From an uncultured Candidatus Saccharibacteria bacterium (GTDB taxonomy: Bacteria; Patescibacteriota; Minisyncoccia; JAHISW01; Tagabacteraceae), in assembly GCA_964601305.1 (NCBI GenBank), contig CAZRMW010000006.1, positions 1 through 46,499 of the forward strand: DNA of 46,499 nucleotides, read 5' to 3'. Positions 5,075 through 17,738 of this stretch are shown in pieces. How positions within the stretch are numbered: position 1 is the stretch's first letter; every line of letters starts with the position of its first letter. Both the position numbers and the translations under genes were made by a program. The notes beneath the pieces were generated by a model. The model ran no database searches, had not been told where the DNA came from, and saw only the letters and a program-made list of their open reading frames with translations.

Positions 5075-6640
5075 GTGACCATGACAAAGCCTCTGGCATT
5101 AATTATCTTAGATGGATTTGGATACGACAAAAGAGCCACGGAGTCTCCGTGGCAACTTGCCAAGCATCCAAACTTTTCTGAAATAGAAAAGTGGTATCCA
5201 TTTACTACTCTTCAAGCATCCGGACTTGCAGTGGGCCTGCCATGGGGAGAAGAAGGCAATAGCGAGGTGGGCCACCTTACTATGGGCTCTGGAAAAATCA
5301 TCTACAACCACCTGCCACGCATAATAATGTCTATAAACGAAGGTACTTTCGACAAAAATGAAGCCTTTGTTGAAGCGGCCGAGCATATCGGAAAAACTGG
5401 TGGAAATTTGCACATTATGGGGCTTTTTTCCTCTGGATCTGTGCATGCCTACATAGACCACCTCTATGCACTCCTAGATTTTTCTAAAATAAACAAACTA
5501 AAAACGTATTTACATCTTTTTACAGATGGTCGAGACGCCCCGCAAAATGAGGCAGGTAATTTTACAAAACAACTAGAAGAAAGGCTCGAAAAATATCATC
5601 CGAACATAAAAATTTCTTCAGTAGTAGGACGCCGTTTTGCTATGGACAGAGATGAAAAATGGGATTTTACAGAGAAAACTTACAAATTGTTGACAGAAAA
5701 AAGGGGAGAAGAATACGAACTCGCCTCTATTTATATTGAAAAGAATTATAAAAACGGAAAAACTGACGAATTTATAGAGCCTGGATTTTCTAAAGAAGGG
5801 GAGTCTATAAAAAATGGAGATGCTGTAATATTTTTCAACTACAGAGAAGACAGTGCTAGGCAAATAACCTCTGCTTTTGTAAAAGATGGATTTGATAAAT
5901 TTGAAAGAAAAAAAATTGCCAATCTTAAGTTCGTTTCTATGACACAGTACGACGAAAAACTTCCCACAACAATTGCTTTTCCTCCTATTACCGTAAAAAA
6001 TCCACTCTCAAAAATTATATCTTCAACCAGCCTTAGACAACTACACATTGCTGAAACAGAAAAATATGCACATATTACCTACTTTTTTAATGGTGGGACA
6101 GAAAAACCATTTGAAAACGAGGAAAGGGCGCTGATACCATCTCACCAAACTCCACACTACGACGAAACGCCAGAAATGTCCGCCCAAAAAATAACAAACA
6201 AAGTATTAGAGAGCCTGGGTAGCTATGATTTTTTTGTAATAAATTTTGCCAACGCCGATATGGTAGGGCACACAGGTAATTTTGAAGCTTGTATAAAAGC
6301 AATAGAAACTTTAGACAAACAGATAGGTCAAATCGTTCCTAAAATTTTAGAAGTTGGAGGGTCTGCCATCATTACATCCGACCATGGCAATGTAGAAGAA
6401 AAAATGTACAAACTAACCGGCGAAAAAATGACGAAGCACACCACCAACCCTGTGCCTTTCTATCTTATTGGTAAAGATTGGCAGAAAAACACCGCCGCAA
6501 ACATAGAAGAAATTGCAAATTCCTACAAAGAAGTAAATGGCACGCTTACAGATGTAGCACCAACCATCTTAGAAATTTTGGGCACACAAAAACCAGAAGA
6601 AATGAGCGGAAAGAGCTTAATTTCTAAGTTGAAAACATAA
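5075..6640 (+). CDS. gpmI: 2,3-bisphosphoglycerate-independent phosphoglycerate mutase. The listed start is GTG at 5075. The ATG at 5081 sits 6 nt after a TATAAT box, which suggests a leaderless transcript.
   Basis: LALIILDGFGY and NSEVGHLTMGSGKIIYN are iPGM signatures. Confidence 0.9.
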   Translation: MTMTKPLALIILDGFGYDKRATESPWQLAKHPNFSEIEKWYPFTTLQASGLAVGLPWGEEGNSEVGHLTMGSGKIIYNHLPRIIMSINEGTFDKNEAFVEAAEHIGKTGGNLHIMGLFSSGSVHAYIDHLYALLDFSKINKLKTYLHLFTDGRDAPQNEAGNFTKQLEERLEKYHPNIKISSVVGRRFAMDRDEKWDFTEKTYKLLTEKRGEEYELASIYIEKNYKNGKTDEFIEPGFSKEGESIKNGDAVIFFNYREDSARQITSAFVKDGFDKFERKKIANLKFVSMTQYDEKLPTTIAFPPITVKNPLSKIISSTSLRQLHIAETEKYAHITYFFNGGTEKPFENEERALIPSHQTPHYDETPEMSAQKITNKVLESLGSYDFFVINFANADMVGHTGNFEACIKAIETLDKQIGQIVPKILEVGGSAIITSDHGNVEEKMYKLTGEKMTKHTTNPVPFYLIGKDWQKNTAANIEEIANSYKEVNGTLTDVAPTILEILGTQKPEEMSGKSLISKLKT

Positions 6641-6694
6641 AACGCGGTAAAAACTATATAGGTTTTACCGCGTTTGTCAAATTTTAAACGTTTT

Positions 6695-9640
6695 TTAGAT
6701 TTTGTGCAACTCTAGAGATTTATCGCCCAATTCTTTATTGGCGCTTTCAAGCAGTGGCTGCCCAGAGATAACAGCCGTCGACATTTTCATACCAAGCTTG
6801 AAATATCTCCTTGCCACTTTCAAAATAACATCTTTATTGATCTCGAGAACCCTGTCTTTAAACATTTTCCTTTGTTTGTAGCTCATTCCCGACAGCCTTC
6901 TGAAAAAATCTTTTCTGGCAGCAAAGCTTGGAGTCTCCGCTTCGTCAATCTCTGCGCACACCGACAAAATTGCTTCTTTCACGTCTTCTTCTGTAAAATT
7001 GCCGGAATTTATAAAATCCAACGCTGAATTGTATTTTTCAAGAGTACGAACTATATGAGGATCTCTGTACGACCCAAAAGCAAAGTTTCCACTTTCTATA
7101 CTATAAAGAGAAAAGCCGCCATATGCTTTGCCTTTTTCTCTGATTTCTTTATGAAGATACTTAGATCGCATTAATCTAGCCAAAACAGCAAGAACAGGTG
7201 CATCTGGATGCCCAAATTTTACCGCCCTAAACACTGAAGCAACAAAAGAAACACCCGAAGATGTGCTCCAGCCCTCACGGACTTTACAGTTTTCCGGAAT
7301 CTTGTGTTTGTAAACAAAATTTGATTTTCCGGCAGTCATTTTTTTAAAAACTATATTTAGGCATTGCTTTGCCACTTCAGCCTTTCTAATATCTCCAATT
7401 AAAGCAACTTTCATATTATTTTTTTTAAAAATTAAAGATGCTATTTCATCTAGATCCATCGAAAGATGTTCTATACCATTTTCTTTTATGTCCAGTACGA
7501 GTTTTTTAGCAAACTTTAACTGCGATATACCATTCCAAAGCTCGTTAACAAACGAAGTCTTAGAGGTGTTTCGAGCTGCCAAGCTAATAGCAAACCTATG
7601 ACCATTTTGTAGTACTCTCGATTCCAGCAATGCGACATATTCAAGAAGAAGATTTTTCAATCTATCATGATCAAAAAAATCATGATAAATCAAAAGCTCT
7701 TCCACCAATTTCATCATTTCTTTAGTATTTTTTTCCAAGCATTTTGCATTTAACGAAACAAAAGTCAGAGTTTTGCCATTTTTGTGATTATTTCCAGCCA
7801 TTGAAGAAAAATTTATGCCACCCGTATATGTATTTATCTGTCGGACAACATCTTCATAACCCCTTTTTTCTGTACCAACCTTATTTAAAATGTGACAAAA
7901 GAATGGAATAAGAGGCAAGAGATCTTTTTTAAGTTCACCAAGACCAATGGCTCCAGTAAAATAAAAAATACCGGAAGTTGGCTGATCGTACACCAAGACC
8001 TTGTTTCCTTCTATTGTTGTATCTATATCGGGAGCTTCTATCTTTTTCGGAGGTTTTACTTCAGAAAGAGAAAGTGTGGGCAAACAAGAAAGATCTTCTT
8101 CGGAGTCTTGAAGTTTTTTAAGTTCACTGGCTACTTTTTTTATGCTCTCGATTTCTTCAGCAGTCATGCCTTTTTTGATTTCTTCAAGCTCCAAACGAAC
8201 CCTTTCCTGCTCTTTTTCGGCCATTTCATGGCCGGGAGACAATACAAACCGAACATGATGAGAATTGTTTAAAAAATACTCTTTAATTTTCTTCTCAAAA
8301 AAACGGCCTTTTTGTATTCCTTCCTGTATTACAGAAAGATTTTCACCAAAATCCAATCTCTCCGCCAAGTCCCCACCATGAATGTAGCTCTCTAAAAATC
8401 TCAATAAGACTTTTATACCATAAGGATATGGAGAGTTTGTTACTTCTTTTGTTTTAAATTCCAATTGATGCAGAGCAGAATCAATAAGTTTTTGATCAAT
8501 ACCATTTTTTACAAGATTCTCTAGTGTTTCAAAAATAAGATTCTGCACTTTTGAAGCATCCTCTTTTTTTATATCTTTAAGACCAACGGAAAACATTGTG
8601 TCTTTCAAGTCTGTCTCTAGGCCACTAGAATCGCTTAATGTAGACCCTATTTTTGAGTCAATCAAAGCTTTTCTCAAAGGAGAAGCTGAATCACCCAAAA
8701 GAATAATATTCAGCAAATCTAGAGTAAGAACTTCTAAACTATCGCGCACATCTGCGACAAGCCAAGCAACACAAGCTTGGTATTTTTTTGTGGGATCTTC
8801 ATTTTTGGCCAGTGGGTATTTATACTCTACGCTCTTGGGCTTATCCCAGTGAGGCTGAGATAAAACTTCAGTATCTGGGTCTATTTTTGAAAAATCTTTC
8901 AGCACACCTTGCAACAAAGCCAGGGTCTTTTCTACTGGAAAATTACCGTAAGAATAAGAAAAAGCATTACTCGGATGATAATGGCGTTCATGAAATACCA
9001 CAAGATCTGCATGAGAAAGATTTACTATTTCTCTTGGGTCTCCGCCAGAATTAAAGCTATAAGTAGTATCTGGATAAAGAGCATTCATTAAAGATCTTTC
9101 CATAATTTGATTTGGAGAAGACATCGCGCCCTTCATTTCGTTGTATACCACACCCCCGTAAGCCAAATTTTCTTCCTTTGTTTCCTTGTTTTTTTCTACC
9201 TCAAGGCACCAACCTTCTTGGAGAAAACTTAGTTTGTCTATCTTTGGAAAAAAGACAGCGTCGGCATAAACGCTCATAAGATTATAATAATCTTTTTCGT
9301 TTTCCGTAGAAAATGGATACATCGTCCAGTCTGGAGCTGTAAAAGCATTCATAAAAGTATTCAAGCTTCTTGTAAGCATAGAAAAGAAAGGATCTTTTAC
9401 AGGAAAATTTTTAGAGCCTGCCAGAGCAATATGCTCCAAAATATGAGCAATACCAGTCGAATCTTGAGGTACTGTTTTTAGTCTAATTCCAAAAGTATTT
9501 TCGGGATCGTTGTTTGCTATATGTATGTGCGTATCTCCCGAGGGATGAACAAATTCAAATATTTCCGAGCCACCACGAATATCTGGCAGATCTTCTCTTC
9601 TAACAAGCTTAAAATCATAATACGTTTTACCTACTTGCAT
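6695..9640 (-). CDS. M16-family (PreP/M16C-like) zinc metallopeptidase, about 981 aa. I trimmed the start to the ATG at 9640, which has a GGAGGA RBS. The ORF track extends to 9742 only by reading through an upstream GC-palindrome repeat.
   Basis: HILEH inverzincin motif. The length and domain order fit M16C. The RBS ggaggacact lies immediately before MQVGKTYY. Confidence 0.8.
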   Translation of the reverse strand: MQVGKTYYDFKLVRREDLPDIRGGSEIFEFVHPSGDTHIHIANNDPENTFGIRLKTVPQDSTGIAHILEHIALAGSKNFPVKDPFFSMLTRSLNTFMNAFTAPDWTMYPFSTENEKDYYNLMSVYADAVFFPKIDKLSFLQEGWCLEVEKNKETKEENLAYGGVVYNEMKGAMSSPNQIMERSLMNALYPDTTYSFNSGGDPREIVNLSHADLVVFHERHYHPSNAFSYSYGNFPVEKTLALLQGVLKDFSKIDPDTEVLSQPHWDKPKSVEYKYPLAKNEDPTKKYQACVAWLVADVRDSLEVLTLDLLNIILLGDSASPLRKALIDSKIGSTLSDSSGLETDLKDTMFSVGLKDIKKEDASKVQNLIFETLENLVKNGIDQKLIDSALHQLEFKTKEVTNSPYPYGIKVLLRFLESYIHGGDLAERLDFGENLSVIQEGIQKGRFFEKKIKEYFLNNSHHVRFVLSPGHEMAEKEQERVRLELEEIKKGMTAEEIESIKKVASELKKLQDSEEDLSCLPTLSLSEVKPPKKIEAPDIDTTIEGNKVLVYDQPTSGIFYFTGAIGLGELKKDLLPLIPFFCHILNKVGTEKRGYEDVVRQINTYTGGINFSSMAGNNHKNGKTLTFVSLNAKCLEKNTKEMMKLVEELLIYHDFFDHDRLKNLLLEYVALLESRVLQNGHRFAISLAARNTSKTSFVNELWNGISQLKFAKKLVLDIKENGIEHLSMDLDEIASLIFKKNNMKVALIGDIRKAEVAKQCLNIVFKKMTAGKSNFVYKHKIPENCKVREGWSTSSGVSFVASVFRAVKFGHPDAPVLAVLARLMRSKYLHKEIREKGKAYGGFSLYSIESGNFAFGSYRDPHIVRTLEKYNSALDFINSGNFTEEDVKEAILSVCAEIDEAETPSFAARKDFFRRLSGMSYKQRKMFKDRVLEINKDVILKVARRYFKLGMKMSTAVISGQPLLESANKELGDKSLELHKI

Positions 9641-9802: not shown

Positions 9803-9874
9803 CGGTCCCACGGGGAATCGAACCCCGATTTTCAGCTTGAAAAGCTGACGTCCTGACCGTTAGACGATGGGACC
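9803..9874 (-). tRNA. tRNA-Glu (anticodon TTC).
   Basis: Cloverleaf: acceptor ggtccca/tgggacc, D-arm tcgtctaacggtcaggac, anticodon loop ttttcaa, T-arm cgggg-ttcgatt-ccccg. Confidence 0.85.
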
Positions 9875-9911
9875 CGCCTAAATTAAAGATATTGCAAATT
9901 ATAAAACAATA

Positions 9912-10253
9912 TTAGACACTTTTCAATGGTATCAACTCAAAATTAATTATTTTAACTATAGTATCTTTGTTTACTTTGTCGCCATAATAGCGCCTAAAAC
10001 TTTCATACATTTTTTCTTCACTCTTATATTTTTTGTGTCCCACAAAATCTTCATCAGTTATTTTACTAAACTTCTTTTCTCTTACATTTATTAATTCAGC
10101 TTTTGCAAATACTTCCCCTGTATTCCAATTTACAAGCTCCACCTTATCGCCAACTTGTAAATCTTTGTCGTCAAAAAGTCGCCAAGTGGTGGTCTTTTCA
10201 CCAGATAGCACAAGTGGCACAAGGTGTTTTCTAAATTTAAGTGTTTTATCCAT
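9912..10253 (-). CDS. ASCH-domain (PUA-like) protein.
   Basis: LSGEKTTTWRL, a small protein with a beta-barrel-like pattern. Assigned from memory of the family. Confidence 0.45.
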   Translation of the reverse strand: MDKTLKFRKHLVPLVLSGEKTTTWRLFDDKDLQVGDKVELVNWNTGEVFAKAELINVREKKFSKITDEDFVGHKKYKSEEKMYESFRRYYGDKVNKDTIVKIINFELIPLKSV

Positions 10254-10357: not shown

Positions 10358-11485
10358 ATGAAAATATTAGCCATAGAAACATCTTGCGACGAGACGGCAA
10401 TAGCAGTTTTGAAGGTGAAAAGCACGAAGGCGCCGGTTTTTTCGATTTTATCTAATATCGTTTCTTCTCAAGTGAAGCTCCACGCAAAGTGGGGTGGTGT
10501 CGTTCCAGGTTTAGCCAAGCGCGAACACACCAAAAATCTACCAAAAGTTTTAGATAAGGCACTAAAACAAGCAAAGATAAAAACCCCTGAAAAAGAAATA
10601 GATTATGTCGCCGTTACTATTGGCCCTGGACTAGAGTCAGCACTTTGGACAGGAATAAACTTTGGGAGAAATTTAGTAGAAGAGTGGAATAAGCCAATAA
10701 TTCCTGTAAACCATATGGAAGGACATTTGTTTTCTCCGTTTTTGAAAAGTGAAAATTTCAAGATTCCTAAAATTAACTTTCCAGCGATTGCACTGCTAGT
10801 AAGTGGCGGACACACGCAACTTGTGCTAATTAAAAATCTTGGAAAATACAAAATTTTAGGAGAAACTCGCGACGACGCCGCAGGAGAAGTTTTCGACAAA
10901 GTAGCCAGAATGCTAAACCTCGGCTACCCCGGCGGCCCCGCCATTTCTAAACTAACATCTAACCCCACCTCATCTGTTGGAGGTCCGACTTCCAACAGAT
11001 ACGATGTCAAGTTGCCGAGGCCAATGATAAGTGATAATTCTCCAGACGGCGAATTTGATTTTTCTTTTTCTGGTTTGAAAACCGCAGTGCTTTATAAAAT
11101 AAAGGAGTTGAAAAGTTTACCCCGCTCGGCGGGGCTTACACCAAGCATCAAAAAAGAAATCTGCCACGAATTTCAGCAATCCGTAATAGATGTTTTAATT
11201 TCTAAAGCTTTGAAGGCCACAGAAAAATACAAAGCAAAGACTGTCATACTTGGCGGGGGAGTAGTAGTAAACAAAGAGCTTAAAAAACAATTTAAAGAAA
11301 ATCTGAAAGATAAAAATATAGACTTGTTAATTCCAAATATTAAATTTTCTGGAGACAATGCAGCTATGATAGCTTTGGCTTCGTATTTCCAAAAGAAAAA
11401 GCCTGTCCGTTCGACAGGCTCCCTCCAAAAAGGCGGGCAGGCAGGACAAGCTTTGAAAGCAAATGGGAATTTGAGGATTGGTTAA
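10358..11485 (+). CDS. tsaD: tRNA N6-adenosine threonylcarbamoyltransferase TsaD (Kae1/YgjD family). It carries an in-frame GC-palindrome insertion (encoding PRSAGL) and a repeat-derived C-terminal extension.
   Basis: MKILAIETSCDETAIAVL, HMEGH and GGVVVN motifs. Confidence 0.9.
   Translation: MKILAIETSCDETAIAVLKVKSTKAPVFSILSNIVSSQVKLHAKWGGVVPGLAKREHTKNLPKVLDKALKQAKIKTPEKEIDYVAVTIGPGLESALWTGINFGRNLVEEWNKPIIPVNHMEGHLFSPFLKSENFKIPKINFPAIALLVSGGHTQLVLIKNLGKYKILGETRDDAAGEVFDKVARMLNLGYPGGPAISKLTSNPTSSVGGPTSNRYDVKLPRPMISDNSPDGEFDFSFSGLKTAVLYKIKELKSLPRSAGLTPSIKKEICHEFQQSVIDVLISKALKATEKYKAKTVILGGGVVVNKELKKQFKENLKDKNIDLLIPNIKFSGDNAAMIALASYFQKKKPVRSTGSLQKGGQAGQALKANGNLRIG
11439..11478. repeat. Direct repeat A (ggcaRgac...ctttRaaagcaaatgggaatttRag), overlapping the tsaD C-terminus and stop. 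Its partner is at 12565-12599.
   Basis: Read directly. About 32 of 35 nt are identical. Confidence 0.7.
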
Positions 11486-11775
11486 TTTATCTTTATTTCC
11501 TCTTCAAAAAACTTTATTCTTCCAGAACCAGCTTCGCATATTCCTACTTTTGTAATATCTTCAATTTCTTCCGAACACAAATTTAGATCTAAAACAATTC
11601 CATCTAAAAAACAAATAGTTCCTTTTCCTAAAATATCTGTTCCTTTCTTATTTATGGTACCAATTAGATACCCCTCCTTTTTAAAATTAATAAAAACGGT
11701 CCATTCGTTTTCAAGAGCTTTTTTAAATTTTTTTATTATTTCTTCATTTTCTTGTACAGGAAGTGAAGTTAACAT
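11482..11775 (-). CDS. Hypothetical protein, 97 aa. It is part of the cassette bracketed by direct repeats.
   Basis: ORF only. No family recognised. Confidence 0.3.
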   Translation of the reverse strand: MLTSLPVQENEEIIKKFKKALENEWTVFINFKKEGYLIGTINKKGTDILGKGTICFLDGIVLDLNLCSEEIEDITKVGICEAGSGRIKFFEEEIKIN

Positions 11776-11927
11776 TTTAAAATTCTCCTTTTTTATTTAT
11801 TTCAATATCCTCTCTGTAGTTTTAATCTAGCTAAAGTCTAAGTCAAAAACATTTTTGTATCAAGACAAAAAAGTACAAAGTACCACGACCGCTTAGTTTT
11901 GTACTTTTTTTATTTTATCAAAACTAG

Positions 11928-12266
11928 CTACTCCACTAAAGCTAAGATTTTTTCTTGAGTTTCTAAAAGAGCCTCGTCTTTTATTTTGGTAATATATTTT
12001 ACTTTTCTTGCTTGCCAATCTAAGGTTCTAAGTTGATCTGCAAGCACAAAACCTTTTATTTTTTTGTTTTCTACAGAAACCTCAAATGGGTATCCTTTTT
12101 CGTGAGAAGTAATAGGACACATTAAAGCCAGACCTGTTTTGTTGTTGTACATTTTTGGAGAAATTACCAAAGCGGGTCTTTTTCCTTTTTGTTCACGCCC
12201 ACTTTGTGGATTAAAATTTATCCAAACTAAATCTCCTCTGTCTGGAACATAGTTTTTCTTTACCAT
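11928..12266 (-). CDS. mazF: MazF/PemK-family endoribonuclease toxin.
   Basis: PDRGDLVWINFNPQSGREQKGKRPALVISP is the canonical MazF N-terminus. Confidence 0.85.
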   Translation of the reverse strand: MVKKNYVPDRGDLVWINFNPQSGREQKGKRPALVISPKMYNNKTGLALMCPITSHEKGYPFEVSVENKKIKGFVLADQLRTLDWQARKVKYITKIKDEALLETQEKILALVE

Positions 12267-12502
12267 ATTTCTTTGCCTTGTGGATTATCATCAAAAACAA
12301 GTGTTTGTTTATTCTCATTAGTAATTTGAGAGACTAAATCTTTTATACTAGTTCTACTTTTTTTTACTGGGCGAACTAACACAGCTTTATCTTTTACAGA
12401 AAGAACTACAGAGCTACCAGACTTAAAGTTTAGTTTTTTAGAAATCTCTCGAGGAATACGAACAGCCAGACTGTTTCCCCACATTTTTATTTTTGTAGTC
12501 AT
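12260..12502 (-). CDS. mazE: MazE/AbrB-like antitoxin. The start is trimmed to MTTKIKMWGNS.
   Basis: SpoVT/AbrB swapped-hairpin pattern (KMWGNSLAVRIPREI). Overlaps the mazF start. Confidence 0.7.
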   Translation of the reverse strand: MTTKIKMWGNSLAVRIPREISKKLNFKSGSSVVLSVKDKAVLVRPVKKSRTSIKDLVSQITNENKQTLVFDDNPQGKEIW

Positions 12503-12521
12503 ATATACATTGTATATACAT
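12501..12521. promoter_or_regulatory. Repeated atatacat motif / near-palindrome at the mazE start. Candidate operator and -10 region.
   Basis: atatatacattgtatatacat read directly at the ATG. Confidence 0.3.
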
Positions 12522-12564
12522 AATAATAAAAAGTCAAACAAAAAGCCTCGTCGAGATAAACTCG

Positions 12565-12599
12565 GCAAGACCTTTAAAGCAAATGGGAATTTAAGTATT
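12565..12599. repeat. Direct repeat B, the partner of 11439-11478. Together they bracket the MazEF cassette.
   Basis: Read directly. Confidence 0.7.
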
Positions 12600-12803
12600 T
12601 AATTCATCCATCACAGAATCTACTAAACTCTCTTGCTTCTCTTTAAAATCTTTTTCCAATTCTTCTGTTGTCCCACTTTCTTTTCGAACTTCTTCGTAGG
12701 TCGCAATGATTGCTTCAACATAGTTCATATGTTGCATTGGAACAAACTCTTTTTCGTATAATAAAAATTTTACTTTTTTAATAATTTCTTTTTTTATTTT
12801 CAA
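12591..12803 (-). CDS. Hypothetical acidic small protein, 70 aa.
   Basis: ORF in a two-gene overlapping operon. No family recognised. Confidence 0.3.
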   Translation of the reverse strand: MKIKKEIIKKVKFLLYEKEFVPMQHMNYVEAIIATYEEVRKESGTTEELEKDFKEKQESLVDSVMDELNT

Positions 12804-13108
12804 TGTCCCTCCTTCCCTAAATTTTCTGCTATTTTCAAAAATTCTCCAAAATGCTCAACAACCTCAAATATTTCAGGCTCCACATCTACTTCCTCTCTTT
12901 CTATTATTTCCTCCGCTAAGTCAAAAAGGGATTGTATTTCTTTTATCTCTTCTTCAATTACCTTCCTCATCACTTCCGCCACAACCCTCAAATCTTTAAT
13001 TTCAAGAGCTACAGCTTTTGAGCTAACATGCTCACAATTTTTACTTCCATCCCAAATCCTTTTCTTTACTTCCAACAAAAATTGTTCGTCGTGTTCCATT
13101 TTTCCCAA
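12800..13108 (-). CDS. Hypothetical protein, 102 aa.
   Basis: ORF whose stop overlaps the start of the downstream ORF. Confidence 0.3.
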   Translation of the reverse strand: MGKMEHDEQFLLEVKKRIWDGSKNCEHVSSKAVALEIKDLRVVAEVMRKVIEEEIKEIQSLFDLAEEIIEREEVDVEPEIFEVVEHFGEFLKIAENLGKEGH

Positions 13109-13183: not shown

Positions 13184-15217
13184 ATGTCAAACAAAATTGA
13201 GGGCACCTACGACCCGCAAAAAACTGAAGAAAAAATATACCAAACCTGGAAAAACTCAGGTTTATTTAATCCAGACAACTTAAAAAATACTAAAAAAGAA
13301 ACTTTTACTATTGTGCTTCCTCCACCAAATGTGACAGGCGCACTACATATGGGCCATGCCTTAAACGCAACTATTCAAGATATTTTGATAAGAAAAAAAA
13401 GAATGGAAGGCTACAAAGCCCTCTGGCTTCCGGGCACAGACCATGCCGGTATTGCCACACAAAACGTTGTAGAAAAAAACCTTATCAAGCAAGAAGGCAA
13501 AAGAAGACACGAGTTAAGTAAAGAAAAATTTATAGAGCGCGTTTGGGAGTGGAAAGAAGAGTATGGAAACAAAATTTTGGGTCAACTCAAAAAAATTGGC
13601 GCTTCTTGCGATTGGTCTCGCACAAGATTTACCATGGATGAAGACTATCAAAAAGAAGTTAAAGACGCCTTTATGCATTATTACAACAAAGGCTGGATGT
13701 ATAAAGCAGAGAGAGTTATAAACTGGTGCACAAAATGCCAAACGAGTCTTTCAGACCTCGAACTTGAGCACGAAGAGCAACACGACAAACTTTATTTTAT
13801 AAAATACGGTCCAATTACGGTTTCTACGACACGACCTGAAACAATGTTAGGAGATACTGCAATTGCTGTTAATCCAAAAGATGAAAAATACAAAGATTTA
13901 ATTGGCAAAAAAGTGATTTTGCCAATTGTAAACAAAGAAATACCTGTTATAGAAGATAGAGTTATAGATCCAGAGTTTGGTACAGGAGCTGTAAAAGTTA
14001 CACCTGCGCACAGTATAATTGATGCAGAAATAGGGGAACGACACAATCTAGAAGCTCCAAAGGTTATAGATCAATTTGGAAAAATGACTTGGGGAAAATA
14101 TGAAGGAATGAAAATAAACGAAGCACGAGAAGAAATTGTAAAAGATTTAGAAAAAGAAAACTTGGTGGAAAAAATCGAAGATTACACACATAACGTATCC
14201 ACTTGTTATCGATGTAATAGAATAATTGAAAACCTGCCAAGCGAACAATGGTTTTTGAAGATGGATGAGCTTGCAAAAAAAGCTATGGAGGCTGTTGAAA
14301 ATGGTAAAGTAAAATTTCATCCAAAAAAATGGGAAAAAACTTATTTAGATTGGCACAAAAACATTCGCGATTGGTGTGTTTCTAGACAAATTTGGTGGGG
14401 ACACCAAATTCCAGTAGAAAATTCTGAAGACGTTTTGGACACATGGTTTTCTTCCGCGCTTTGGGCGCATGCAACACTCAAAGGAAAAGATCGAGATGAA
14501 TTTTATCCGACAAATGTGCTTTCAACCGCTAGGGATATCATAAATCTTTGGGTGGCAAGGATGGTTTTTTCTGGCTTGGAGTTTGAGAGTAAAGAGCCTT
14601 TTGAAGATGTGATAATTCACCCGACAATTTTAAATAAGAAAGGCCAACGAATGTCTAAGTCTTTAGGCACTGGAGTAGACCCAATGGATTATATAGAAAA
14701 GTTTGGAGCAGATGCTACTCGCTTTGGGTTAATTTGGCAGACCATGGGCAACCAAGATATTCATTGGGCTGAAGAGCATGTGCTTGCTGGCAAAAAGTTT
14801 TGCAATAAGCTTTGGAATATAGCTCGTTTTGTGTTAGCACAAAACGAGAATTTTCAATTTTCAATTTTAAATTTTAAATCAATTTCTAATGATAAATTTT
14901 CAAACGACGACAAAGAAATTTTAGAAAAATTTGAAAAAATTACCAAAAACACCGATAAAAATATTGAAGAATACAAGTTTGGACAAGCGCTTCACGAGCT
15001 GTACGATTTTGTATGGCACAGTTTTGCAGATAAATATATAGAATATTCAAAAAATAATGAATCCGAAGAAACAAAGCAAGTTTTAGCTTATCTTTTAGTT
15101 AACTCTTTAAAGCTCCTTCACCCCTTCATACCTTTTATCACAGAAAGTATTTGGGAAAAATTTCCTTTAGAAAACAAAAAACTTCTTATCGTAGAAAACT
15201 GGCCAGAAATAAAGTAA
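13184..15217 (+). CDS. valS: Valyl-tRNA synthetase, unusually short at 677 aa.
   Basis: PPPNVTGALHMGHA (HIGH motif) and RMSKSLGT (KMSKS motif). Confidence 0.8.
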   Translation: MSNKIEGTYDPQKTEEKIYQTWKNSGLFNPDNLKNTKKETFTIVLPPPNVTGALHMGHALNATIQDILIRKKRMEGYKALWLPGTDHAGIATQNVVEKNLIKQEGKRRHELSKEKFIERVWEWKEEYGNKILGQLKKIGASCDWSRTRFTMDEDYQKEVKDAFMHYYNKGWMYKAERVINWCTKCQTSLSDLELEHEEQHDKLYFIKYGPITVSTTRPETMLGDTAIAVNPKDEKYKDLIGKKVILPIVNKEIPVIEDRVIDPEFGTGAVKVTPAHSIIDAEIGERHNLEAPKVIDQFGKMTWGKYEGMKINEAREEIVKDLEKENLVEKIEDYTHNVSTCYRCNRIIENLPSEQWFLKMDELAKKAMEAVENGKVKFHPKKWEKTYLDWHKNIRDWCVSRQIWWGHQIPVENSEDVLDTWFSSALWAHATLKGKDRDEFYPTNVLSTARDIINLWVARMVFSGLEFESKEPFEDVIIHPTILNKKGQRMSKSLGTGVDPMDYIEKFGADATRFGLIWQTMGNQDIHWAEEHVLAGKKFCNKLWNIARFVLAQNENFQFSILNFKSISNDKFSNDDKEILEKFEKITKNTDKNIEEYKFGQALHELYDFVWHSFADKYIEYSKNNESEETKQVLAYLLVNSLKLLHPFIPFITESIWEKFPLENKKLLIVENWPEIK

Positions 15218-17024: not shown

Positions 17025-17062
17025 CCCCCAAGCATTGTGAATCTTTGCTTGGGGATTTTTTT
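17025..17062 (+). terminator. Rho-independent terminator.
   Basis: ccccaagca...tgcttgggg followed by a T7 run. Confidence 0.65.
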
Positions 17063-17738
17063 ATGGTAAATTATCAAATTTTGCTAGACCACGAATCCAT
17101 CCCTTCAATTTATTAACATCCTTCACTCCATTTATAGATATACGGCATGTACCAAACGGTAATGTCTTTTTTCTTCTTTTTCCTTTACTTGCAGAACTAA
17201 CCTGATAAAGAGTTTTTTCAAATATATCTTCGGGAATCGATGTAATTTTCGACCAATATTTTCTAGCCTCTTTTTCTTTTATATTAGGATGAATTTGTAT
17301 ACCAATTTTTATTCTATCTTCTTTAATTTTCATAATATCTCTAAAGAATTTCATCATTAAGATAATCATTAGGGGGTCAGAATTTACAAAAAATATTTTC
17401 CATCTATCAACCTTAGACCCTTCTGCCCAATGAAGTGCCGAGCCCACTAACAAAAGTTCTCTATCAGAAAGTTTTCCTATGTCCTTCATGGCATTTTCTT
17501 TTTCTTCTTCGGTTTGCTTTGCAATATGCTTTGCTCTCTTTTTATTATATTTTGTTATGTTTTTTGACCAAATTCTTTTATTTTTTGAGCATATATCCTT
17601 CAGAAAATCAGTGGGCCATTTTTCTCTTCTAAACCAAGAGGAAAGGGTGCTTTTTGGAACACCAAGTTTAGTAGAAATTTCGTTATAACTTTTACCAGAA
17701 AGTCTTAAAGAAATAGCTTTTTTCTTATCTTTTCGCAT
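17061..17738 (-). CDS. HTH-domain protein with a LAGLIDADG-like homing-endonuclease-like core. It is free-standing, not inside an intron.
   Basis: N-terminal SYNEISTKLGVPKSTLSSW helix-turn-helix. LLLVGSALHWAEGSK and GTCRISINGVKDV resemble LAGLIDADG half-motifs. Confidence 0.4.
   Translation of the reverse strand: MRKDKKKAISLRLSGKSYNEISTKLGVPKSTLSSWFRREKWPTDFLKDICSKNKRIWSKNITKYNKKRAKHIAKQTEEEKENAMKDIGKLSDRELLLVGSALHWAEGSKVDRWKIFFVNSDPLMIILMMKFFRDIMKIKEDRIKIGIQIHPNIKEKEARKYWSKITSIPEDIFEKTLYQVSSASKGKRRKKTLPFGTCRISINGVKDVNKLKGWIRGLAKFDNLP

Follow-up and report, generated by a model that had tools for sequence, protein, structure and literature searches.

The tail of tsaD looks like a recurrent landing pad for a mazEF cassette and other recombinase-less modules in Patescibacteria

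We analyzed a 46,499-nucleotide stretch of DNA from an uncultured Candidatus Saccharibacteria bacterium (contig CAZRMW010000006.1, positions 1 to 46,499; hereafter, the window). Just downstream of tsaD, the window has a 1.1-kb segment that encodes a MazEF toxin-antitoxin pair. This segment lies between two copies of the tail (the 3' end) of tsaD: one copy completes the live gene and the other is dead. Docking at the tsaD tail is found in at least five genomes, with differing cargo. From these sequences, the tail looks like a recurrent and orientation-specific landing pad, within the candidate phyla radiation (CPR, or Patescibacteria), for modules that lack a recombinase, and it doubles as a predicted antisense terminator. 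The MazEF proteins are ordinary; the interest is the docking site. Because Patescibacteria have tiny genomes, few recognized mobile elements, and no routine genetics, how they gain accessory or defense genes is poorly understood. If genes can dock at the end of a gene that is essential and conserved universally, this would offer these bacteria a simple way to exchange DNA.

The duplicated tsaD tail

The features of tsaD and of the segment are:

10358..11485, plus strand: tsaD, the target gene, 375 aa (Pfam TsaD, E = 5.9e-82); its last ~100 nt are tail copy 1
11388..11492, plus strand: tail copy 1, the live 3' end of tsaD, comprising an A-run (Lys codons), a hairpin (11400-11420), a lineage-specific extra ~28 nt, the core (11456-11472), the stop (11483-11485), and then 7 nt
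11482..11775, minus strand: orf97, an orphan open reading frame (ORF) of 97 aa; its stop overlaps the tsaD stop (TTAA), and it has its own GGAG ribosome-binding site
11854..11923, minus strand: AT-rich hairpin (an inverted repeat) and U-run between mazF and orf97; fold of -15 kcal/mol, z = -2.9
11928..12266, minus strand: mazF, toxin, 112 aa (PemK_toxin PF02452, E = 2e-27; residues 10-109 match profile positions 2-107 of 109)
12260..12502, minus strand: mazE, antitoxin, 80 aa (MazE_antitoxin PF04014, E = 2.4e-12); its homologues are likewise 80 aa
12503..12537, minus strand: mazEF promoter, with -35 TTGACT, a 17-nt spacer, and -10 TACAAT; 10 of 12 positions match the consensus, and this is the top promoter-like site of the region
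12533..12609, plus strand: tail copy 2, a dead but in-frame 3' end of tsaD, comprising an A-run, a hairpin (12541-12575), the core (12576-12592), and a pseudo-stop (12600-12602)

The initial annotation described a direct repeat of about 35 bp at the end of tsaD and again 1.1 kb downstream, and we confirmed that both copies are in those places: ggcaggac...ctttgaaagcaaatgggaatttgag at 11440-11475, and ggcaagac-ctttaaagcaaatgggaatttaag at 12564-12595. They share a 17-nt exact core, AAAGCAAATGGGAATTT, which occurs solely at 11456-11472 and 12576-12592 in the window, even if 2 mismatches are allowed. (About 0.09 chance matches to the core are expected, and none of 100 shuffled sequences had 2 occurrences.) An ungapped comparison of the two tails covers 27 nt with an 89% match. 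A gapped local alignment has 41 matches in 45 non-gap columns and runs through the stop codon and 7 nt past it. The score of this alignment is 47, versus 16.1±2.7 for 1,844 other 150-nt windows (both strands), with 26 for the best unrelated one. With gentler gap costs, the alignment extends to about 75 non-gap columns, from the A-run of lysine codons on (11388-11492 versus 12533-12609), so the repeat is longer than the 35 bp that was first described.

Both copies read as the end of TsaD. Copy 1 supplies the C-terminal residues of the live protein (...QALKANGNLRIG, then the stop), as had been annotated. Read in the tsaD frame, copy 2 gives ...KKPRRDKLGKTFKANGNLSI and a stop, which is a normal C-terminus for the TsaD proteins of this clade. 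(They typically end with ...KKP-x5-10-ALKA[ND]GNL[KR][IL]x, and the motif LKA[ND]GNL is common to more than 100 relatives.) From the core to the stop, the window's copies differ by 5 substitutions, 4 of them at codon position 3, and by a single in-frame indel (a GGT codon was lost). Both cores use GCA and GGG, whereas the synonymous states in relatives are GCC or GCT and GGC. Copy 2 keeps the loop GATAAACTC of the tail of a close relative (locus L126), and this loop is replaced in copy 1, which has an extra 28 nt (read from the aligned tails). The live tail is about 28 nt longer than those of relatives (11414-11441, again as read from the aligned tails). The extra 28 nt creates a new perfect 8-bp hairpin and makes the TsaD linker about 7 residues longer than in L126.

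Between the copies are orf97, mazF, and mazE, all on the minus strand, as both the ORF map and Pfam bear out. mazE is upstream of mazF and overlaps its start by 7 nt. The pair is MazEF by both of its members, a PemK/MazF-fold toxin and a MazE/AbrB-type antitoxin. The GC content across the insert is 0.27-0.33, versus 0.35-0.44 in the flanks, which is a modest dip and not decisive.

The sequence of the mazEF promoter is also found upstream of mazE in four other loci (L119, L002, L120, and L125). Inside the promoter are two TGTATATA repeats, which are conserved in five loci and are likely to be the operator for MazE. At the other end of the pair, the AT-rich hairpin at 11854..11923 is probably the terminator of mazF. 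We also noticed that the -10 box ends just 7 nt ahead of the ATG of mazE (12502-12514), with no Shine-Dalgarno sequence, and that the spacing from the -10 box to the ATG is equal in the same four loci. Because the -10 box is so close to the ATG and the Shine-Dalgarno sequence is missing, the mazEF mRNA may be leaderless.

The tsaD-valS interval in related genomes

In dozens of related loci from genomes and metagenomes of Patescibacteria, valS starts 20-190 nt after the tsaD stop. Among the close relatives, L130 and L131 (TsaD 60-61% identical) have tsaD-valS gaps of 78 and 19 nt. In other close relatives, a single small ORF on the minus strand overlaps the tsaD stop with its own: 51 aa in L126, 62 aa in L134, and, in L132, the ortholog of a 60-aa ORF of L129. 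The site is empty of cassettes in L130, L131, and L132, as well as in many more distant relatives. (By TsaD, the nearest relatives are 62% identical in scans of genomes and metagenomes and 65% identical in a protein search. In the genome collection, the nearest species representatives of the window's low-GC genome are metagenome-assembled genomes of Patescibacteria, Moranbacteria, and Parcubacteria.) Because valS directly follows tsaD in relatives, the 1.7 kb of minus-strand genes between them in the window is added DNA. The remaining features of this interval are:

12591..12803, minus strand: orf70, outside the repeat-bracketed segment; no significant family match
12800..13108, minus strand: orf102, outside the repeat-bracketed segment; no significant family match
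13184..15217, plus strand: valS, 677 aa, the ancestral right-hand neighbor of tsaD (NCBIfam valine-tRNA ligase, E = 4.5e-276)

The repeat divides the 1.7 kb into a proximal block (orf97, mazF, and mazE) and a distal block (orf70 and orf102). As at att-type sites, direct repeats flank the insert, and one of them completes tsaD. The other, copy 2, adjoins the -35 box of mazE and holds the stop of orf70 (12591-12593). Neither orf70 nor orf102 has a homologue in any of the related loci that we fetched; these two genes are older occupants of the tsaD-valS slot.

We surveyed 84 distinct tsaD loci for repeats of the tail. Significant repeats were found only in the window, L119, L129, and L072; L002 has a weaker one (E = 0.003). 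(A 16-mer in L019 lies inside valS and was judged to be a chance match.) When we searched with a regular expression for the tail peptide, extra copies were found only downstream of tsaD and only on the tsaD strand. That the cassette was inserted at the end of tsaD and is bracketed by duplicated tails is supported by the tsaD-valS neighbors in relatives and by three other genomes with a tail, cargo, and a second tail. The gene order of the window was not found without the repeats: the relatives with mazEF at tsaD also carry them.

First, L119, which is a JGI metagenome contig, has TsaD and MazF proteins that are 56% and 75% identical to the window's. Its mazF ends 1 nt from the tsaD stop, and a 35-nt exact repeat is found in the tsaD tail and just upstream of the -35 box of mazE. 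(The contig starts inside this second tail copy.)

Second, L002, L062, and L136 are from one species, with TsaD and MazF proteins that are 62% and 78% identical to the window's. Here, 5 nt separate the end of mazF from the tsaD stop. Past mazE, L002 and L136 have AAAACAAAAAGC-N17-GCTTTTAAAG (of the GCTYTTAAAG type), versus AAAACAAAAAGC-N17-GCTCTTAAAG in the tsaD tail. This second tail is degenerate and the remainder of it is deleted; it is followed by a 98-aa minus-strand ORF and then by valS.

Third, L129 (TsaD 65% identical) is syntenic with the window upstream, and its cargo, with an exact 47-nt repeat of the tsaD tail on either side, is a gene for a 281-aa hydrolase of the metallo-beta-lactamase (MBL) fold. 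The distal tail continues in frame as far as a stop (LKAEGNLPI). Its sister L132 (TsaD 76% identical) has neither the MBL gene nor the repeat. (The MBL-fold protein, at L129:5110-5955, has precomputed matches to Anti-Pycsar_Apyc1 and Lactamase_B from Pfam and to PHROG 392, a metal-dependent hydrolase, as well as a weak match to RNase Z.)

Fourth, the distantly related L072 (TsaD 48%) has three copies of the tail, at 6095-6161, 9841-9907, and 10615-10681, with repeats of 44-48 nt. These copies set apart a block of four genes, a block with one, and more genes on the minus strand. The array is like that of an integron, and no integrase is visible in the stretch that the locus covers (up to 11080). 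The two distal copies have the tail allele ADANLKMK, versus AAANLKLK in the resident copy. Among the L072 copies, 8 of 14 substitutions are at position 3, and there is no indel in 63 nt. In both the window and L072, the bias towards position 3 and the frame-keeping indels look like the pattern expected of functional alleles, but the numbers are small. (The cargo at L072:6095-10681 includes an RDD-family membrane protein, a 588-aa Cys-rich protein, small membrane proteins, and a Zn-ribbon ORF.)

In every case, the cargo is on the minus strand, with its 3' end adjoining the tsaD stop and its promoter adjoining the second tail. The modules are 0.9-3.7 kb and look like single transcription units.

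We made several other observations about these loci. The small minus-strand ORFs of 51-98 aa (L126:3956-4111, L134:5065-5253, and L136:7745-8041) end with ...GP/GD(C/N)CD and a stop, and match no known family. The overlap with the tsaD stop is 4 nt in L126 and L134; the L136 ORF lies past the mazEF insert. These ORFs may encode a lineage-restricted small Cys-containing protein. In L016, the tsaD-valS gap (5399-8120) contains a 335-aa reverse transcriptase, a 124-aa Avd-like ORF, and a 267-aa target that repeats a nearby template-like ORF at its C-terminus. Read from the translations alone, this looks like a diversity-generating retroelement. A contig from the window's strain (L055:2311-2445) departs from the window over its final 135 nt, at about 10738 inside tsaD, which could be an assembly chimera or a variant.

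As for the flanking genes, the window's ValS has only 677 aa, versus about 860 positions in the NCBIfam models, and matches them in two stretches. The ValS proteins of L129 and L132 are divergent (44-45% identical), while those of other clade members are about 70% identical. On the other side of tsaD, the window has an ASCH-domain gene (9912-10253) between the gene for an M16 peptidase and tsaD; in L129 the peptidase is immediately before tsaD, and in L132 an N_methyl-domain gene is in between. Because these upstream neighbors differ, the 5' side of tsaD is variable too. The window also encodes PilM and RuvB. A 225-aa protein (17061-17738) has weak N-terminal matches to helix-turn-helix families (HTH_SB, HTH_23, and phage CI repressor), and is the sole vaguely mobile-element-like product among the 10 ORFs that we scanned.

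A predicted antisense terminator in the tail

We also examined the strand opposite to tsaD, where the repeat contains a hairpin that the initial annotation did not mention. In all nine tails of the clade, this strand has a GC-rich hairpin and then, directly, a U-run (z of -2.4 to -4.6). The nine include two empty-site genomes with no convergent gene (L130:2600-2645 and L131:5026-5072). In copy 1 of the window, the hairpin (11400-11420) is AGCCTGTC-CGTTC-GACAGGCT. On the minus strand, this hairpin is followed by UUUUUCUUUU and folds with -22 kcal/mol and z = -4.6; none of 200 shuffles was as good. Copy 2 folds on the minus strand with -15.6 kcal/mol and z = -2.9, followed by UUUUUGUUU.

The stems differ among genomes (GCCTGTC/GACAGGC; GGCCTGC/GCAGGCC; AAGCCCCTC/GAGGGGCTT; and TCCCATCAG/CTGATGGGA), and the peptide that is encoded across the hairpin stretch is also variable. 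Since the stems and the peptide vary while a hairpin is kept, selection appears to act on the structure and not on the protein. The simplest reading is that the hairpin is a predicted intrinsic terminator for convergent genes, inside a tolerant linker of TsaD. A caveat is that a scan for consensus terminators did not list the tail hairpins. Also, no GC-rich hairpin was found at the tail of more distant relatives, nor at the tail of L072. (We ruled out a dif- or lox-like core site in the hairpin: loop lengths vary between 3 and 14 nt, and the stems are not the same in different genomes. The MAFFT alignment sets the arms of the hairpin in different registers.)

Because the tail also encodes this antisense terminator, its duplication keeps both convergent neighbors complete. 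The duplication seems to copy three things: the end of tsaD, the end of the convergent gene that is already in place and overlaps it, and the predicted terminator. An antisense terminator in a coding tail would illustrate how convergent genes can share sequence in compact genomes.

The initial annotation suggested that orf97 travels with the toxin-antitoxin pair. This was not borne out: orf97 is absent from L136/L002 and from L119, where mazF ends 1-5 nt from the tsaD stop. orf97 has no relative in 5.8 billion clustered proteins. Among 1.84 billion representatives, it has one borderline match (P0242, E = 7e-4), and P0242 itself has only a weak match to DUF7020. orf97 does not belong to any family in Pfam, PHROG, NCBIfam, or PADLOC, and its AlphaFold model (pLDDT 41.6) is too poor for a fold search. 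There is a promoter-like site for orf97 (TTGATA-17-TAGACT, 11863-11835) after the mazF hairpin. orf97 would terminate at the hairpin that is embedded in tsaD, and mazF would terminate at its own AT-rich hairpin. In an alignment of the window, no third copy of the tail marks the arrival of orf97. The comparison with relatives indicates that orf97 is a separate and lineage-specific addition, outside of the mazEF module.

Possible routes of insertion and known systems

How did the cassette arrive? The most economical idea, to which we give a roughly even chance, is Campbell-type integration: a single crossover would have brought the 1.1-kb segment, as foreign DNA, to the 3' end of tsaD. Ancestrally, valS came right after tsaD, in some cases with one small convergent gene in between that overlaps the tsaD stop. 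The last ~70 nt of tsaD in this clade combine a variable Lys-rich linker and the ...LKANGNL.. codons with, on the opposite strand, a GC hairpin and a U-run that would end convergent transcription. The incoming DNA would be small circular modules, each with a promoter, one or more genes, and a terminator that is itself tsaD-tail sequence. A single crossover between the circle and the chromosomal tail would rebuild a complete tsaD (copy 1) and leave a dead tail (copy 2) on the far side. Copy 2 would still give a 3' end and a terminator to orf70-orf102, and would adjoin the incoming promoter. Because the modules encode no recombinase, the crossover would be made in trans, either by the host's RecA, acting on 35-70 nt of homology, or by some site-specific recombinase. 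(Repeats of 35-70 nt are around the lower limit for RecA-dependent exchange, and Patescibacteria have been reported to be naturally transformable.) The cargo here, a type II MazEF, would stabilize the insert or act in defense, and orf97 would have been added later, beside the tsaD stop, in a separate event. The duplication, the insertion, its recurrence with other cargo, and the embedded terminator-like hairpins are all seen in the sequences; the circle, the crossover, and its enzyme are inferred. The short homology also suggests using the tail as a landing pad for engineering these bacteria via natural transformation.

A broader proposal is that Patescibacteria have a cassette system, recombinase-free or mobilized in trans, in which the tsaD tail is both terminator and attachment site. 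Serial docking would give integron-like arrays (with MazEF, an MBL-fold hydrolase, or membrane proteins as cargo), and the universally conserved target would let the cassettes spread between lineages. We hold this only tentatively.

Several comparisons suggest recent or repeated events and not a single ancient one. In each genome, the second copy of the tail shares lineage-specific synonymous states with that genome's own tsaD. The L126-like loop of copy 2, the separate tail allele of the distal L072 copies, and the bias towards position 3 fit this as well. Also, the third codon positions of tsaD are near saturation among the genomes of the window, L119, and L129 (38-53%). Given the exact repeats in L119 and L129 and the shared states, recent or repeated events or gene conversion would fit better than one ancient duplication. 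Between the window and L136, third-position identity is 58% for mazEF and 41% for tsaD (with 32% and 26% expected by chance). The tails of L129 and L132 share an unusual 36-nt identity, but we did not take it to indicate transfer, since another part of the gene has an exact run of 31 nt.

Several points weigh against integration by crossover. The end of L129's tsaD-proximal tail is that of the uninserted L132, and the last 12 nt of the distal copy differ. With an L129-like host, this junction would be the opposite of the simple Campbell prediction. No recombinase domain was found in the cargo proteins of any module or in the 10 larger ORFs of the window that we tested (not every ORF was tested), and no recombinase was found next to a tsaD tail in the viral contigs that we scanned. 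Among the contigs of the window's strain, which are 99.9-100% identical over the region, every contig that spans the cassette carries it; neither a circle, nor an excision product, nor an allele with the site empty was observed. Since the copies in the window match at only ~89% and differ by indels, this particular insertion is old and has probably lost its mobility. As for transfer between lineages, the mazEF carriers are not monophyletic on our rough TsaD tree, but that tree is star-like and has no bootstrap values. Across phyla, MazF keeps 60-65% identity to its homologues; because it is intrinsically conserved, the higher identity of MazF than of TsaD is weak evidence for transfer. And the closest outside homologues of MazF (71-72%) are in other contexts, by tRNA and rpmG genes or by a bAvd gene.

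The strongest rival is that the tail was duplicated in situ without any mobile element. Foreign DNA would have entered, by illegitimate or one-sided homologous recombination, between two convergent genes that overlap at their stops and share a terminator inside tsaD. Only events that duplicate the overlap would leave both genes intact, and the flanking repeats would then reflect selection and not a dedicated mechanism. In uninserted relatives, tsaD and the small convergent ORFs do overlap by 2-4 nt at their stops, and the convergent gene's predicted terminator does lie within the tsaD tail. The L129 junction fits this explanation better than it fits a crossover: the proximal tail is wholly ancestral-like, and the junction at the end of the distal copy is 4 nt shorter and resembles a scar. 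No recombinase was found in the cargo or in the 10 ORFs tested. But at least 4-5 independent rare events would be required, each copying 35-70 nt of the same segment with the cargo in a constant orientation. In L072, two successive events would be needed, and the distal copies come from a different allele of the tail. Similarly, the distal hairpin of L002 resembles the tail of L119 more than L002's own. We consider in-situ duplication to be rather unlikely. If the insertions were one-off illegitimate events filtered by selection, then this would be an ordinary hotspot.

We think it improbable that mazEF was inserted just once, in the ancestor of the clade, and then descended vertically, with several losses and with gene conversion keeping the tails alike. 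The three mazEF carriers do share their gene order, promoter, and position. The identities of MazF and MazE (79 and 60% between the window and L136; 82 and 68% between L136 and L119) roughly track the relatedness of TsaD, and the window's copies have diverged by indels. However, a single insertion leaves the MBL cargo of L129 (with its 47-nt exact repeats and its empty-site sister) and the L072 array unexplained. On the TsaD tree, it requires at least 4 losses. And the exact repeats of 35 and 47 nt, despite near-saturated third positions in tsaD, imply efficient conversion of very short tracts.

Finally, it is barely credible, and already refuted, that the repeat is a generic intergenic or terminator motif, akin to repetitive extragenic palindromic (REP) sequences, or a chance match: both copies hold terminator-like hairpins, which are common between genes, but the core occurs just twice in the 46.5 kb, the score of the alignment greatly exceeds background, the shared portion is the coding tail while the hairpin sequence differs between the copies, and copy 2 retains the frame, the motif, and the stop.

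Returning to integration of foreign DNA at the tail, we compared it to other ways of inserting DNA. The initial annotation described a target duplication. The tail is indeed duplicated, but a target-site duplication like that of a transposon is unlikely: in the window, the repeat spans about 50-75 nt, terminal inverted repeats are missing, and the insert has no transposase or integrase. More broadly, no inverted repeat joins the boundaries, no transposase was found, and the repeats are 35-75 nt and vary in length. Retro-insertion, via the cDNA of a transcript that ends at the embedded terminator, was ruled out because the conserved promoter travels with mazEF.

We also looked for a phage attP site that resembles the tsaD tail. 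Exact-pattern scans of viral contigs gave chance matches, with no flanking similarity and no TsaD. Scanning the viral contigs with the TsaD profile gave five non-CPR loci, one of which (L163) has a serine recombinase. But L163, a provirus from IMG/VR, is integrated at a tRNA gene downstream of tsaD. Macrococcal prophages have been reported "between TsaD and ABC transporter" (PMC6008420). Like L163, these prophages are not at the tsaD tail.

Other islands and prophages that restore a gene end use tRNA, tmRNA, or dusA-type sites and encode their own tyrosine or serine recombinase, whereas none was found in the cargo of the tsaD modules. Integrase-mediated islands and prophages at gene ends bring a copy of the gene end, so that the target is restored and direct repeats flank the element (for example, PMC4482086).

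A close known parallel in organization is provided by the streptococcal cis-mobilizable elements (CIMEs and microCIMEs), which lack an integrase, are bounded by att-type direct repeats at the 3' end of a conserved gene (a housekeeping or tRNA gene), can form tandem arrays separated by att copies, and are mobilized in trans (PMC7563491). The tsaD modules are alike in having flanking repeats without recombination genes, in their 3'-end site, and in tandem stacking. However, CIMEs are decayed integrative and conjugative (or mobilizable) elements, with integrase-bearing relatives at the same site, and no integrase-bearing element was found at the tsaD tail. The tsaD modules also differ in being only 0.9-3.7 kb, in looking like single transcription units, and in having a Patescibacterium as host. 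Similarly, the H47 island of E. coli (microcin H47) has extensive imperfect direct repeats and no integrase of its own, and depends on excision and integration in trans, which yield hybrid att sites (PMC3191183). But the H47 island is 13 kb, no essential gene has its end rebuilt by it, and experiments have demonstrated its mobility, while that of the tsaD modules would follow from sequence comparison only.

The array in L072 is reminiscent of integrons. Integron arrays have one entry point, cassettes in the same orientation, structured repeats in between, and, in chromosomal integrons, toxin-antitoxin cargo. The tsaD modules differ from integron cassettes in that no intI or attC architecture was found (attC boxes were not formally modelled, and no integrase was found among the 10 ORFs tested), in that their repeats are the ends of a coding gene, and in that the cassettes, including mazEF, have their own promoters. 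As for the cargo, the window's MazEF is an ordinary type II pair, with the antitoxin first, overlapping genes, and repeats in the promoter; only its genomic docking is special.

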